DNA of 64,000 bases from Escherichia coli (GTDB taxonomy: Bacteria > Pseudomonadota > Gammaproteobacteria > Enterobacterales > Enterobacteriaceae), in assembly GCF_965641715.1 (NCBI RefSeq), contig NZ_OZ282453.1. One strand, given 5' to 3'. Made by a program: the position numbers and the translations under genes. Below are positions 16,217 to 21,737 of the stretch, in pieces (the stretch's first letter is position 1; each line of letters starts with the position of its first letter). The notes beneath the pieces are model-generated. The model was not told the origin of the DNA and did not search any database. It worked only from the letters and a program-made list of their open reading frames with translations.

Positions 16217-17836
16217 TTACATTTGGTACGAAAAATTAAAATTTACATTCACCCGATCAATATCTAATGTCGCCGGGTACTTTAATGGGGTAGAAACGGA
16301 AAAGTTATACTCAAGACTTTTAATATTTCCATCAATACCAACTGCCGCGCCCACCAGTGATTCATCGCCATAAGAAGCGTCCTGATACACTTGCCCAAAA
16401 TCAAGACCGGCATAATAGTTAGCTTTCATTCCAGGCAAAGGAAATGCCAGCGTATTTTTTATATAAAAACCATCATTCCCTGACAAACCTACGCTATTTT
16501 CAAACCCGCGAATACTCCAACGATCGCCAACTGTAATTTGATCTTGCAAAGTCAGTTCACGCGGTGCGTACTGGGCAAAAAAAGCGGTATTGTAATATCC
16601 ATTCTTTATTTGTCGGGTGTAATTACCCTCAAAATTAAAGATATTGCTCACCGGGCTAACGTCTCCATATTGCATATCCGGCGTTTTTTCACCACCGAAC
16701 CAGGTTAAAAAGCGTTGCCACGAGAGGGTTGAATCCCAGAACGCGCCGGGTAACTGTTGCTTATAATTTAGCCCCAGCTTGATATTTCCCATATCCCGCG
16801 CCTGTAATGTCAGCTCCTCACCATTAAGCGTGTAATTCGACTTTCGTCGAATGAGTTCTGCACTCCCGGCGAATTTTTTTGTTTTATCGCGATAAACGGT
16901 ACGCGTCGCCTTTGCGCTCAAGTATTCGCTGGTGCCAACATAATCCAGCGAGATGTACGAAAGCGGAATCACCTGCTGCGATTTACTTTTGCTATAGAAA
17001 AAGCCGTACTCCCAGTACCCCACCGGAATGGAATAATAACTACTGACGTTTTCATACTGTCCGGTAGTACTACGCGTACCGGCGAGATAAAACAGATCCC
17101 CCATTTTCGCTGGATTAAACAGATAACCCACCGCGGTTGTCTGGTAACGGCCCGTTTCTTCATCGCCCCAATTATTGTAACTTGCCCGAACGCTCCAGTT
17201 TTTCCCCCGGTGTGTATCAATATGAACGATGCTGTAACCATCCCGTGTTCCCGGTTCAATATTAATTTTCACATCAACGTCAGGTACTCGCTGAAGATTT
17301 TCCAGCCCCTGTTCAATATCGCGAATATTGAGAATATCGTTACGCTGAAAAGGTAACATCCATTCACTGATATCATTACCTTCGACAATCGTTTTTTCTA
17401 TCTTCCCGGCATTAACCTGGAAACGTAGCTTGCCTTTAGAAATATCCTGCGAAGGGATACTAATTCGCGTTGTGATATATCCGGCATTAATATAATAATC
17501 CTGCAAGGCAGCAGCAATTTTTTGCACACCAGCACTACCGACACAACGTCCGGCAATCGCTTTTTGCACTTCAGAAATCAACTGACCACCCAGAAAGTTA
17601 TCTTCCAGTTCAATCCGATTAATGATAAAGCAATTCTTTTCCTGCGGCAGATCACCCAGAGTAAACGCATTACGTTGTGCATTTGAGTAAACATCTTTTT
17701 TTTCTAATTTATGCGCGCGTAACGTGCTTTCATCTGCATTTTTTTGCTGCTTGATCAAATTATCAAGACTGTCTTTCGCTGCAACCTGAAAACAACAAAG
17801 AATGAGCAGCAAACCAAAATTAAATCGTAATTGCAT
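16217..17836 (-). CDS. Two-partner secretion outer-membrane transporter, TpsB (ShlB/FhaC/HecB family), 539 aa
   Basis: Signal peptide, POTRA-like N-terminal region, C-terminal beta-barrel with alternating aromatics; immediately downstream of a TPS-domain exoprotein gene. Confidence 0.75.
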   Translation of the reverse strand: MQLRFNFGLLLILCCFQVAAKDSLDNLIKQQKNADESTLRAHKLEKKDVYSNAQRNAFTLGDLPQEKNCFIINRIELEDNFLGGQLISEVQKAIAGRCVGSAGVQKIAAALQDYYINAGYITTRISIPSQDISKGKLRFQVNAGKIEKTIVEGNDISEWMLPFQRNDILNIRDIEQGLENLQRVPDVDVKINIEPGTRDGYSIVHIDTHRGKNWSVRASYNNWGDEETGRYQTTAVGYLFNPAKMGDLFYLAGTRSTTGQYENVSSYYSIPVGYWEYGFFYSKSKSQQVIPLSYISLDYVGTSEYLSAKATRTVYRDKTKKFAGSAELIRRKSNYTLNGEELTLQARDMGNIKLGLNYKQQLPGAFWDSTLSWQRFLTWFGGEKTPDMQYGDVSPVSNIFNFEGNYTRQIKNGYYNTAFFAQYAPRELTLQDQITVGDRWSIRGFENSVGLSGNDGFYIKNTLAFPLPGMKANYYAGLDFGQVYQDASYGDESLVGAAVGIDGNIKSLEYNFSVSTPLKYPATLDIDRVNVNFNFSYQM

Positions 17837-17924
17837 TATCTTCTCAAACTAAATAAAGACAGCAGCAACCCCTGCGTGACATGACGCATTAATATTAAAA
17901 GTCACTGCTGTCTTTGGTTACATC

Positions 17925-20900: not shown

Positions 20901-21737
20901 TTTGGAATCGATGCTGACACCATTAACCCCCCCAGCAATAACGCCGAGGTTGCGAACCCCCACACCTTTCTCGGTGCTGACCAGATTGATTTTGTTCGCA
21001 TACATTCCGCCCAGTTTGGCAACATCTACACTGTAACCGTTACGGGAACCGGTGGCGGATACGGTGCCGGTTACCTGGCCTGCGGCGTTAACATAGTTAT
21101 TACCAGCAACAACGTTCAGCTCATCGGCAGACACTTTGCCGTTAACCACCACGTTACGGGACAGAATTTCTGTCGGGCTGGCGTTATCCAGTTTACCGAG
21201 CGTAATGGTACCGCCGTTCACGGAGTAACCGGCCAGCTTGTCATCCTGGATATCCGGCGTCCCGGTGGTTAAGGTAAGTTTACCTGTATTGATTGAACCG
21301 CCACCGTTTACAGTAATACCATTCGGGTTGGCAATAATCAGATCCGCTTTATCCCCTGCAACTTCCATCATCCCATTAATGGTTGAAGGATTTTTGGAAG
21401 TAACCTCATTCAGGATCACCTTCGCCGACCCGGAGGTCAGATTACTGTTTCCCTGAATATTTCCGGCAAGTGAAGTACTGGATTCATTAGCGCTGTTATT
21501 GAAAACGACACCATTTTTATCAACGTTTAGGTTATCCCAGATATTATGAGATAAACCGCTACCGTTAGGTTTGTTGATGTCAACGACTGGCACACCATTG
21601 GCGTTATATACCGTTCCATTTTTTATGACTAATCCCGCCGCTTGAGAAGCTACAGGAAAAGACAACATCATAAGTATAGCAATAGGGGTTAATGCTTTAC
21701 CCACCGTTGCTTCCTTACTTAAATTTATCATCGCCAC
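17925..21737 (-). CDS. Two-partner secretion exoprotein, TpsA (filamentous haemagglutinin/haemolysin-like beta-helix), 1270 aa
   Basis: Signal peptide; N-terminal TPS domain with ANPNGITVNGG motif; Asn/Gly/Thr-rich beta-helical repeats throughout; no recognisable C-terminal toxin domain. Confidence 0.8.
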   Translation of the reverse strand: MAMINLSKEATVGKALTPIAILMMLSFPVASQAAGLVIKNGTVYNANGVPVVDINKPNGSGLSHNIWDNLNVDKNGVVFNNSANESSTSLAGNIQGNSNLTSGSAKVILNEVTSKNPSTINGMMEVAGDKADLIIANPNGITVNGGGSINTGKLTLTTGTPDIQDDKLAGYSVNGGTITLGKLDNASPTEILSRNVVVNGKVSADELNVVAGNNYVNAAGQVTGTVSATGSRNGYSVDVAKLGGMYANKINLVSTEKGVGVRNLGVIAGGVNGVSIDSKGNLLNSNAQIQSASTINLTTNGTLDNTTGTVTSVGTISLNTNKNTIVNTRAGNISTMGDIYVNSGTIDNTNGKLAAAGMLAVDTNNATLINSGKGSSVGIEAGLVALKTGTLNNSNGQIRGGYVGLESAALNNNNGDIQTTGDIAIISNGNVDNNKGLIRSPTGHIVIGAAGSVNNGSTKTADTGSSDSLGIIADTGVEIGANNINNNGGQIASNGNVSLSSYSTIDDYAGKILSNSKVIIKGSSLRNDTGGISGKQGIEVAVGGSLTNNIGVISSEEGDISLLANSVDNHGGFMMGQNITMESMSGVNNNTALIVASKKLKINARGSIENRDGNNFGNAYGLYFGMPQQTGGMVGKEGIELSGQNIYNNNSRLIAEDGPLTLQAQNTFDNTRALVTSGADASIQVGGTYYNNYATTWSAGNLDIDATTLQNSSSGTMIDNNATGFIASDKNLSLEVVNSLTNYGWISGKGDVDVTVNNGNLYNRNTIAAEKGLDIAALNGIENWKDISAGGDLTMNTNRHVTNNSNSNMVGQNIVINAVNDINNRGNIVSDADLNVTTKGNLYNYLYMVGYGDIALSANSVANNNATIEATGDLIIDSKGNVGNNRGNLHALNGVLSVKGNNLNNDNGEIRGYGDVTLALTGNYDSYKGSLTSETGDVTLTANIVDNAYGLIAGENVSVDAKSTIYNNTALIAANKKLVINAGGNLENRDGNNFLRNNGALFGITDNVGGIVGKEGVTLSAQNVYNNNSSIIAENGPLNLLSKGTLDNTRALLSSGADAIIRAAGTFYNNYATTYSAGNLDVYAASLNNASDGRLEDNTATGVIASDKNLDLSVDSSVTNYGWISGKGDVHFNVLKGTLYNRNAIAADNALTINAQNGVENFKDIVAGTALTIDTQKYVTNNSNSNMLGQTIAINAVNDINNRGNIVGDYSLGVKTTGNIYNYLNMLSYGVAGVSANKVTNSGKDAVLGGFYGLALEANETDNTGTIVGM
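18020..20210. repeat. Internal tandem duplication (~1.1 kb unit, two diverged copies) within tpsA
   Basis: Protein segments NTALIVASKKLKINARGSIENRDGNNF... and NTALIAANKKLVINAGGNLENRDGNNF... are about 70% identical over ~300 aa; antisense ORFs 18139-18378 and 19216-19512 share ...SPLPLIQP ends, giving a ~1134-bp offset. Boundaries approximate. Confidence 0.7.

Follow-up and report, generated by a model that had tools for sequence, protein, structure and literature searches.

The two-partner secretion (TPS) pair OtpA/OtpB of Escherichia coli, an exoprotein (TpsA) with its transporter (TpsB), was analysed in a window of 64,000 nucleotides (the whole stretch of DNA studied), together with the lipid genes that lie directly downstream. 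The source DNA is E. coli O-island 47, and the pair corresponds to Z1542/Z1543 or ECs1282-1283. O-island 47 spans z1528-z1556 (PMC8565820, PMC10877973), and otpAB (ECs1282-1283) is located in S-loop 71, i.e. OI-47 (bioRxiv 10.1101/2020.04.13.038984). ORF Z1542 is named as an exoprotein in the title of a 2007 thesis, as listed in reference 34 of PMC11125564. A TPS review contains the entry 'OtpA, E. coli, Unknown, Choi et al. 2007' and describes a sequential translocation across the inner and then the outer membrane (PMC5422565), while OtpA accumulates in the periplasm when OtpB is missing (PMC8151025). The experimental dependence of OtpA secretion on OtpB goes back to Choi et al. 2007, as cited in later sources (PMC5422565, PMC8151025, bioRxiv 10.1101/2020.04.13.038984). 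Published work on the pair of strains EDL933 and Sakai (Choi, Dawson & Bernstein 2007; Choi & Bernstein 2009) deals with the mechanics of secretion, and TPS secretion kinetics have been studied on OtpAB as a model, its biological role being still listed as unknown (PMC5422565). The window contains the same genes without structural difference from that pair, and thus a TPS system that is already described and experimentally validated. The 2007 study of Choi and co-workers reportedly found OtpB to be strictly required for OtpA secretion, in O157 as well as in K-12, and is said to place OtpAB in neither the haemolysin nor the adhesin subtype. From the O157:H7 genome paper onward, the lipid genes of O-island 47 have reportedly been labelled only 'fatty-acid or polyketide biosynthesis'.

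Three groups of described TPS systems are closest to OtpAB. The cytolysin systems HpmA/HpmB and ShlA/ShlB share the fold and sequence of the TPS domain (HpmA265) and a ShlB-family TpsB. In contrast, OtpA is much shorter, the genes stand in the order A-B, and homology does not extend past the TPS domain. FHA/FhaC of Bordetella (FHA, filamentous haemagglutinin) also shares the TPS domain (1rwr, E 9.5e-36) and the TpsB architecture (FhaC, E 2e-21), and has tpsA upstream of tpsB, whereas FhaB, with about 3600 aa, carries a C-terminal prodomain and adhesin modules that are all lacking in OtpA. HMW1ABC and EtpBAC are precedents for a TPS operon with extra genes acting on or with TpsA, and EtpA matches the whole fold. 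Their accessory part is a single glycosyltransferase, whereas that of OtpAB is a 16-gene system for lipid synthesis and export without a recognisable TpsA-modifying enzyme.

The TPS pair and the lipid genes are kept together, in the same order and nearly always at a short distance, in at least 15 genera. We regard it, with moderate confidence, as the best explanation that the type Vb system OtpAB forms the leading, attenuated module of a lipid operon and works jointly with the exported, probably polyunsaturated, lipid at the cell surface. In the literature searched, we did not find a description of the tight junction between tpsB and the lipid operon across genera, of the covarying hairpin between otpA and otpB, or of the orphan tpsB genes and the TPS-less distant relatives of the cluster that are presented below.

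The OtpAB pair, its hairpin and its junction

The 6-kb TPS region is present in 382 of the 5426 complete E. coli genomes at 97.5-99.2% identity, including O157:H7 EDL933, Sakai-type strains and O55:H7. The window represents a non-O157 lineage, with DNA 98.9% identical to O157 and 99.2% identical to strain GF3-3; 1264 of the 1270 residues of OtpA and 533 of the 539 residues of OtpB are identical to the EDL933 proteins. In EDL933, ycdU and dgcT/pgaA border the region that holds the pair, which also contains a fimbrial operon, grvA and an EAL-domain gene. The features of the pair in the window are as follows.

21737..17925, minus strand: otpA (tpsA; orthologue of Z1542/ECs1282), open reading frame of 1270 aa with GTG start
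20892..21614, minus strand: TPS secretion domain of OtpA, residues 42-282 (PF05860, E 1.9e-41)
19149..20180, minus strand: tandem duplication in OtpA, copy 1, residues 520-863 (BLASTP of halves)
18015..19046, minus strand: tandem duplication in OtpA, copy 2, residues 898-1241 (BLASTP of halves)
17855..17915, minus strand: stem-loop with U-rich tract in the 88-nt otpA-otpB spacer (folding and covariation)
17836..16217, minus strand: otpB (tpsB; orthologue of Z1543/ECs1283), open reading frame of 539 aa, Omp85-type
17252-17629, minus strand: POTRA region of OtpB (POTRA_2 at residues 70-144, POTRA_3 at residues 158-195)
16331-17239, minus strand: barrel of OtpB (ShlB, PF03865, residues 200-502, E 1.3e-69)
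16202..16216, minus strand: otpB-acpS junction of 15 nt, AGGATAACGAGACTC, with AGGA ribosome-binding site (lowest base of the otpB TAA at 16217, acpS ATG at 16201)
15833..16201, minus strand: acpS-type phosphopantetheinyl transferase (PPTase; TIGR00516, 79.6 bits)

OtpAB is a canonical type Vb system. Besides PF05860, OtpA matches TIGR01901 with 77 bits (cutoff 29.1), followed by weak Fil_haemagg repeats in Pfam. It contains the motif NPSTI at residues 116-120 (21378-21392), which resembles the NPNL motif of TPS domains, and NPNGI at residues 137-141 (21315-21329). Asn and Gly make up 15.1% and 12.8% of the protein, and Cys is lacking. By direct reading, rather than by a signal-peptide predictor, residues 1-33 (MAMINLSKEATVGKALTPIAILMMLSFPVASQA/AG, the slash marking the cleavage site) have a hydrophobic core and then an A-x-A-type cleavage site, as expected of a predicted N-terminal Sec signal peptide. 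The best matches of the TPS domain in sequence searches of the Protein Data Bank (PDB) were Fha30 (1rwr, E 9.5e-36) and HpmA265 (E ~1e-33), and similarity to haemolysin-type structures was confined to residues 47-264. Past residue ~292, searches of Pfam, NCBIfam and PDB sequences returned no solved structure and no toxin family. The two repeat copies are identical at 202 of 344 residues (59%, E 4e-126), with a period of 378 aa or 1134 nt. OtpA homologues range from 847 to 1364 aa, with a short form of 847-912 aa that has a single repeat copy and a long form of ~1290 aa, and all share the C-terminal motif ...N-x-G-x-(I/V)-V-G-(M/L/K)-COOH (...NTGTIVGM in E. coli).

Since E. coli OtpA is too long at 1270 aa, an AlphaFold2 (AF2) model was made of an 892-aa Kosakonia homologue, 60% identical, from an alignment of 24 sequences. 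The model (predicted local distance difference test, pLDDT, 92.6) is a single continuous beta-helix from residue 36 to 892 without a separate C-terminal domain, and residues 1-34 are of low confidence. The modelled TPS domain superimposes on HpmA265 with a template modelling (TM) score of 0.90 and a root-mean-square deviation of 1.9 A at 35% identity. Foldseek matched the model to HpmA, Fha30, EtpA and HxuA, and the entire model to EtpA (8vbb, E 4e-8). The OtpA passenger is hence predicted by this model to be a right-handed beta-helix that ends without a toxin or cap domain. OtpB has its best PDB sequence matches in CdiB (6wim, E 1.7e-43) and FhaC (E 2e-21), and contains the L6 motif IRGF at residues 442-445 and GLDFG, of the [F/G]xDxG type, at residues 477-481. 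Its domains and motifs are those of a TpsB transporter with two POTRA domains and a ShlB-type 16-strand barrel.

The stem-loop between otpA and otpB has an 18-bp stem, and the surrounding region of 126 nt folds with a minimum free energy of -33.3 kcal/mol (z -2.3). A hairpin was found at this position in all 22 loci examined. In an alignment of 15 sequences, 11 of the 13 base pairs showed compensatory changes and 90% of the cells were paired, a level that none of 500 shuffles reached, and slid controls collapsed. In the Kosakonia pseudosacchari and K. quasisacchari loci, where tpsB occurs without an adjacent tpsA, the hairpin is absent. Only ~20 nt, which include the ribosome-binding site, separate the hairpin from the otpB ATG, so that no promoter fits there, and otpB and the lipid genes must be transcribed from a start upstream of the hairpin. 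We infer that the hairpin acts as a partial intrinsic terminator or attenuator, or as a 3' stabiliser.

The junction downstream of otpB is too short, at 15 nt, for a terminator or a promoter, and either element between tpsB and acpS was ruled out on this ground. An Rfam scan of 15500-23500 gave sub-threshold chance matches only; promoter-like matches in the region numbered 15 against 20.9 expected from shuffles and were not used.

A sequence-only reading of the window had described a TPS pair with an NPNGI motif and an Asn/Gly-rich, beta-helical TpsA of 1270 aa without a recognisable toxin domain. Each of these points is confirmed: the Pfam and NCBIfam searches placed PF05860 and TIGR01901 in TpsA and ShlB, POTRA_2 and POTRA_3 in TpsB, NPNGI stands at residues 137-141, the composition is as described and the beta-helix appears in the model of the homologue, while Pfam, NCBIfam and PDB sequence searches found nothing in OtpA besides TPS and Fil_haemagg. 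It had also given a distance of 15 bp from the tpsB stop to the PPTase start, and linked the pair to co-oriented lipid genes; both hold, on the minus strand and with exactly 15 nt, the link is conserved across genera, and the terminator or promoter that would have set tpsB apart from the lipid genes was looked for and is absent. Its suggestion of an adhesin or a haemolysin-like factor is not established, as published work places OtpAB in neither subtype and resemblance to HpmA or FHA is confined to the TPS domain. The proposal of one transcriptional unit stands at the tpsB-acpS end, where there is no room for a terminator or promoter. Between tpsA and tpsB lies the conserved hairpin, and one unit here probably means read-through with attenuation, in which the gene closely tied to the lipid genes is tpsB and not tpsA.

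Co-inheritance with the lipid genes

The comparison comprised 26 loci outside E. coli, namely the loci of TpsB homologues, a locus of Neisseria sp. and 21 further clusters from a scan with the GcvT-like protein of the lipid genes, with one genome per species. The scan added ten more genera plus strain LSJC7. In total, the loci span Kosakonia, Enterobacter, Mixta, Izhakiella, Buttiauxella, Leclercia, Tenebrionibacter, Silvania, Serratia, Klebsiella, Rahnella, Aeromonas, Acinetobacter, Neisseria and strain LSJC7. TpsB homologues with 66, 62, 55 and 50% identity in Kosakonia, Enterobacter, Aeromonas and Klebsiella aerogenes, respectively, stand in the same array of tpsA, tpsB, acpS, ketoreductase (KR), dehydratase (DH), acyl carrier protein (ACP), GcvT-like and ketosynthase (KS) genes, and the same array occurs in Neisseria sp., a betaproteobacterium. 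The upstream flanks are unrelated among the loci and include fimbriae, the capsule genes wza/wzc, a CDI-like pair and yajQ.

In all 26 loci tpsB lies directly upstream of acpS, with a gap of 10-23 nt in 25 of them; in the remaining one, of Enterobacter mori, tpsB is apparently frameshifted. The short junction is retained down to 44% TpsB identity. Directly upstream of tpsB, tpsA is present in 24 of the 26 loci; the two without it belong to K. pseudosacchari and K. quasisacchari, where an orphan tpsB heads the lipid operon (L017 6312-7955, L018 6313-7956). These orphan genes are intact and under purifying selection, with a ratio of nonsynonymous to synonymous substitution rates (dN/dS) of 0.074/0.505, or about 0.15.

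The identity of TpsB to the E. coli protein correlates with that of the KS-CLF (chain length factor), the second KS (KS2) and the GcvT-like protein (Spearman 0.82-0.88), and TpsB and TpsA identities taken together correlate with those of the biosynthetic proteins at rho 0.65-0.89. The divergence of the TPS genes thus tracks that of the lipid genes, which argues that the block was co-inherited and not reassembled. Mean identity to E. coli is 53-54% for the TPS proteins versus 76-80% for the enzymes, i.e. the TPS proteins evolve faster. Within E. coli, roughly as many genomes carry the TPS pair as carry the lipid cluster, ~380 of the 5426 complete ones. The pairing of TPS and lipid genes is not due to chance, and gene order and divergence show here an array from otpA to ycdU that moves between genera as a single block.

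Individual loci depart from the common arrangement. In Mixta mediterraneensis the tpsA reading frame ends 741 nt before tpsB, and Tenebrionibacter intestinalis has two tandem tpsA genes (L021 199-2805 and 3682-6240; 868 and 852 aa) with one tpsB. The orphan tpsB of L017 is preceded by an AT-rich region of 660 bp. In E. coli O158:H23 CFIAFB20140388 (L041), a natural deletion extends from inside tpsB to pgaA, which removes tpsA, the fimbriae and grvA and leaves the lipid genes.

Lipid genes and the possible role of OtpAB

From otpA to ycdU, 18 co-oriented genes cover 20.3 kb with gaps of at most 88 nt and several overlaps of 4 nt. The genes downstream of acpS are listed below.

15058-15819, minus strand: KR (NCBIfam and Pfam annotation, RefSeq)
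14506-15054, minus strand: FabZ/ApeI-like DH (NCBIfam and Pfam annotation, with a weak ApeI-like Pfam match; RefSeq)
14203-14484, minus strand: ACP (NCBIfam and Pfam annotation, RefSeq)
13007-14167, minus strand: GcvT-like aminomethyltransferase (NCBIfam and Pfam annotation, RefSeq)
10375-12933, minus strand: fused KS-CLF-like double ketosynthase, 852 aa (NCBIfam and Pfam annotation, direct reading)
9147-10370, minus strand: second KS (NCBIfam and Pfam annotation)
8197-9150, minus strand: cytoplasmic protein of 317 aa (no Pfam or NCBIfam match)
7479-8186, minus strand: LolD-like ATPase (NCBIfam LolD)
6839-7495, minus strand: secreted protein of 218 aa (no Pfam or NCBIfam family)
5528-6838, minus strand: LolC/E-like permease (NCBIfam LolCE)
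4731-5519, minus strand: LolA-like protein (RefSeq name 'outer membrane lipoprotein-sorting protein')
3346-4734, minus strand: outer-membrane barrel of 462 aa (AF2 model; no Pfam or NCBIfam family)
2391-3335, minus strand: malonyl-CoA:ACP transacylase (TIGR00128)
1408-2394, minus strand: ycdU (open reading frame; 4-nt overlap with the malonyl transacylase gene)

As ycdU overlaps the transacylase gene by 4 nt, it is probably the last gene of the array. The N-terminal half of the double KS carries ACTAS, HGTGT and KSxxGH, and the C-terminal half has no active-site Cys (TGENS); we call the second half CLF-like because the catalytic Cys is missing by direct reading. Pfam and NCBIfam gave no family for the proteins of 317, 218 and 462 aa, nor for the 207-aa protein of the fimbrial operon described below. 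A family-less protein of similar size stands at the position of the 317-aa protein in TPS-less clusters (Bermanella 316 aa, L040 369 aa; matched by size and place), and the 317-aa protein is possibly a core enzyme of the biosynthesis, as yet uncharacterised. For the 462-aa protein, the AF2 model (pLDDT 78.8) has ~18 strands and an inserted helical segment at residues 332-374, and its Foldseek matches are OprD/Occ porins and the alginate exporter AlgE; judging from this model, it is likely the outer-membrane exit for the lipid. From their families, the downstream genes are predicted to encode a type II fatty acid synthase/polyketide synthase-like system, a LolCDE-like extractor, a LolA-like carrier and an outer-membrane barrel. 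The array from otpA to ycdU contains no enoyl reductase (ER) gene, and none of its 18 genes encodes a glycosyltransferase. The missing ER gene and the analogy with the systems for aryl polyenes (APE) and granadaene point to a product that may be polyunsaturated.

The lipid genes have in common with the APE clusters and the group B Streptococcus (GBS) cyl cluster for granadaene a PPTase, a KR, a FabZ-type DH, an ACP, a double KS, a malonyl transacylase and an ABC exporter, as well as the lack of an ER; a LolA-like protein is found here and in APE clusters. Unlike the GBS cyl cluster, they include no obvious equivalents of the N-acyltransferase CylE, the glycosyltransferase CylJ or CylX, and unlike the APE clusters, no adenylation, methyltransferase and thioesterase set. 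To our knowledge, a TPS pair has been reported for neither the cyl nor the APE clusters. At the level of parts, cylF adjoins cylI in the GBS cyl operon as the aminomethyltransferase gene adjoins the double-KS gene here (PMC4315905). The named homologues of the GcvT-like protein included no Streptococcus entry, and the organism names of the cluster members were uninformative. The parallel with cyl stays a literature-level resemblance of parts lists.

We propose that the hairpin, by partly terminating transcription or stabilising the 3' end, would raise the amount of OtpA above that of OtpB and the enzymes, and that read-through past it would transcribe otpB and the lipid genes. OtpA would be secreted through OtpB and serve as the extracellular protein partner of the lipid, as a carrier, anchor or scaffold, rather than as a free-standing adhesin or toxin. 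The conserved structure of the locus leads us to infer the expression of OtpAB as the leading attenuated module; the joint function with the exported lipid at the surface is the weakest step. A dedicated protein partner for a hydrophobic product is plausible, but OtpA and the array contain no recognisable binding domain or modifying enzyme. A more specific and more speculative version, which we put forward only tentatively, makes OtpAB the protein arm of a lipid natural-product pathway. Its beta-helix would carry, anchor or be activated by a lipid made without an ER, like APE or granadaene, that is delivered by the Lol-like exporter and the OprD/AlgE-like barrel, and OtpB would perhaps have a role independent of TpsA. 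Block inheritance, the tight junction, the covarying hairpin and the TPS-less distant relatives together offer the testable hypothesis that exoprotein and lipid cooperate at the surface. If this is true, OtpAB would be the first case of two-partner secretion devoted to a lipid metabolite, which would explain a role listed as unknown since 2007. A functional coupling would imply a new kind of TPS cargo logic and an uncharacterised envelope lipid in enterohaemorrhagic E. coli, Enterobacter, Klebsiella aerogenes and Acinetobacter.

Several observations weigh against a joint function of OtpAB and the lipid. Co-transcription is deduced from spacing and conservation, and the polyene chemistry solely from the missing ER gene, for which the housekeeping FabI could substitute in trans. 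Since an outer-membrane barrel is already part of the cluster, OtpB is not required as a lipid pore, and no acyltransferase able to lipidate OtpA was identified. Judged by the loci, tpsA is dispensable in two Kosakonia species. Distant clusters, with GcvT-like proteins of 31-41% identity, have no TPS pair (L040, Bermanella L037, L038 and L039, one of them a Joint Genome Institute (JGI) contig), and the TPS-less cluster L040 retains the Lol-like exporter. The TPS pair is therefore not a requirement but was added, in one clade, to a lipid cassette that is older, and has been kept since. In Providencia burhodogranariea (L036, GcvT-like identity 43%), tpsA stands directly before acpS and tpsB is absent. 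Moreover, a published suggestion tied OtpAB to the upstream fimbriae and not to the lipid genes (bioRxiv 10.1101/2020.04.13.038984). The Providencia locus itself has no KR call, a short KS-KS and a 123-aa FtsX piece; because several of its genes are uncalled or fragmented, this suggests a decayed cluster.

The suggested tie to fimbriae belongs to an explanation that we consider unlikely, namely that OtpA works on its own as an adhesin or biofilm factor, perhaps as an accessory of the loc6 fimbriae, and adjoins the lipid genes through block inheritance without functional coupling. A plain beta-helix passenger does resemble the adhesins FHA, EtpA and HMW1, E. coli shares a homologous upstream fimbrial operon with Kosakonia radicincitans and K. 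sacchari, and a screen for binding to spinach roots enriched S-loop 71; the accessory idea, a suggestion of the original authors, has been reported (bioRxiv 10.1101/2020.04.13.038984). However, most loci (Enterobacter, Aeromonas, Klebsiella, Neisseria and others) have no fimbriae upstream, whereas all 26 carry the lipid genes. The tpsB-acpS gap of 10-23 nt, kept down to 44% TpsB identity, and the lack of promoter space between hairpin and tpsB also speak against an uncoupled adhesin. That it is tpsB, not tpsA, which is tightly joined to acpS, with the hairpin setting tpsA apart, would equally fit an OtpB that, as an Omp85 protein, acts itself in the lipid pathway, e.g. by inserting the lipid or a pathway protein into the outer membrane or by releasing it, with OtpA as secondary, dispensable cargo. 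The intact orphan tpsB genes of K. pseudosacchari and K. quasisacchari (dN/dS about 0.15) and the variability of tpsA (0-2 copies, 847-1364 aa) agree with this. We nevertheless hold it to be quite improbable, since OtpB has a canonical TpsB architecture and is needed for OtpA secretion according to the literature, and since the cluster already has an OprD/AlgE-like barrel. The absence of tpsA in the two Kosakonia species, moreover, refers to the loci, and tpsA may sit elsewhere in these genomes. We also know of no TpsB that moves lipids.

Two toxin readings fare worse. ShlA needs phosphatidylethanolamine, and OtpA could likewise be a cytolysin of the ShlA/HpmA type, perhaps activated by the lipid of the cluster. 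Although its TPS domain is structurally closest to HpmA265 (35% identity, TM 0.90; sequence E ~1e-33), homology ends at residue ~292, OtpA homologues have about half the size of ShlA/HpmA (847-1364 versus ~1600 aa), and the genes stand in the order A-B, not B-A. The original paper, as reported in a later preprint, placed OtpAB outside the haemolysin subtype (bioRxiv 10.1101/2020.04.13.038984). With the match limited to the TPS domain, the haemolysin reading was rejected as very unlikely. CdiB as the best PDB sequence match of TpsB is the one point in favour of a contact-dependent inhibition (CDI) system of the CdiA/CdiB type. A PT/VENN motif, DUF637 and a toxin domain were not found in OtpA, which ends within a beta-helix repeat, and the next gene is tpsB rather than an immunity gene, in the order A-B instead of B-A-I. 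On domain content and gene order the CDI toxin reading was rejected, and its probability is negligible.

Upstream region and borders of the island

The region upstream of otpA contains the following features.

21738..23127: AT-rich (34% GC) non-coding region of 1.39 kb upstream of otpA, common to the divergent fimbrial (loc6) operon
21997-22051, minus strand: near-perfect long inverted repeat (GGATGTCTGAAATGAT...ATCATTTCAGACATCC), ~260-315 nt upstream of the otpA start
23128-29752: divergent chaperone-usher fimbrial operon (loc6)
23128-23751: first loc6 gene in E. coli, 207 aa, no family match
31367-32179: grvA

The 1.39-kb region is presumed to be a promoter or regulatory region; none of 380 E. 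coli genomes has an annotated feature in it. The inverted repeat may bind a regulator or serve as a terminator, and its sole Rfam match was below threshold and due to chance. The loc6 operon has homologues with 57-70% protein identity in K. radicincitans and K. sacchari (L008 415-6408; L012) and is not common to the other genera that carry the cluster.

Genes for GrvA-like regulators of the ToxR family lie divergently upstream in K. pseudosacchari, K. quasisacchari and a Buttiauxella metagenome-assembled genome (L017 4786-5649, L018, L019 1516-2343), with 26-28% identity to the GrvA of the window and E values of ~1e-28 to 1e-32. In L017 a gene for a small membrane protein follows the GrvA-like gene. 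Within the sequence examined, GrvA-like genes were found upstream in only 3 of 25 loci. GrvA may be the cognate regulator of the cluster.

At the other end of the array, 2623 of the 5426 complete E. coli genomes have only a 3' remnant of the malonyl transacylase gene, 112-529 bp long, beside ycdU. O-island 47 therefore looks ancestral and deleted in K-12-like lineages, and not like an O157-specific insertion. Further downstream, the 3' end of tRNA-Ser(GGA) (947-1034) forms, together with its terminator, a direct repeat of 80 nt (1016-1095 and 1197-1276) with 99% identity between the copies. This repeat at serX looks like the attachment (att)-site scar of an integrative element, and EDL933 has an integrase-bearing element at the serX position.

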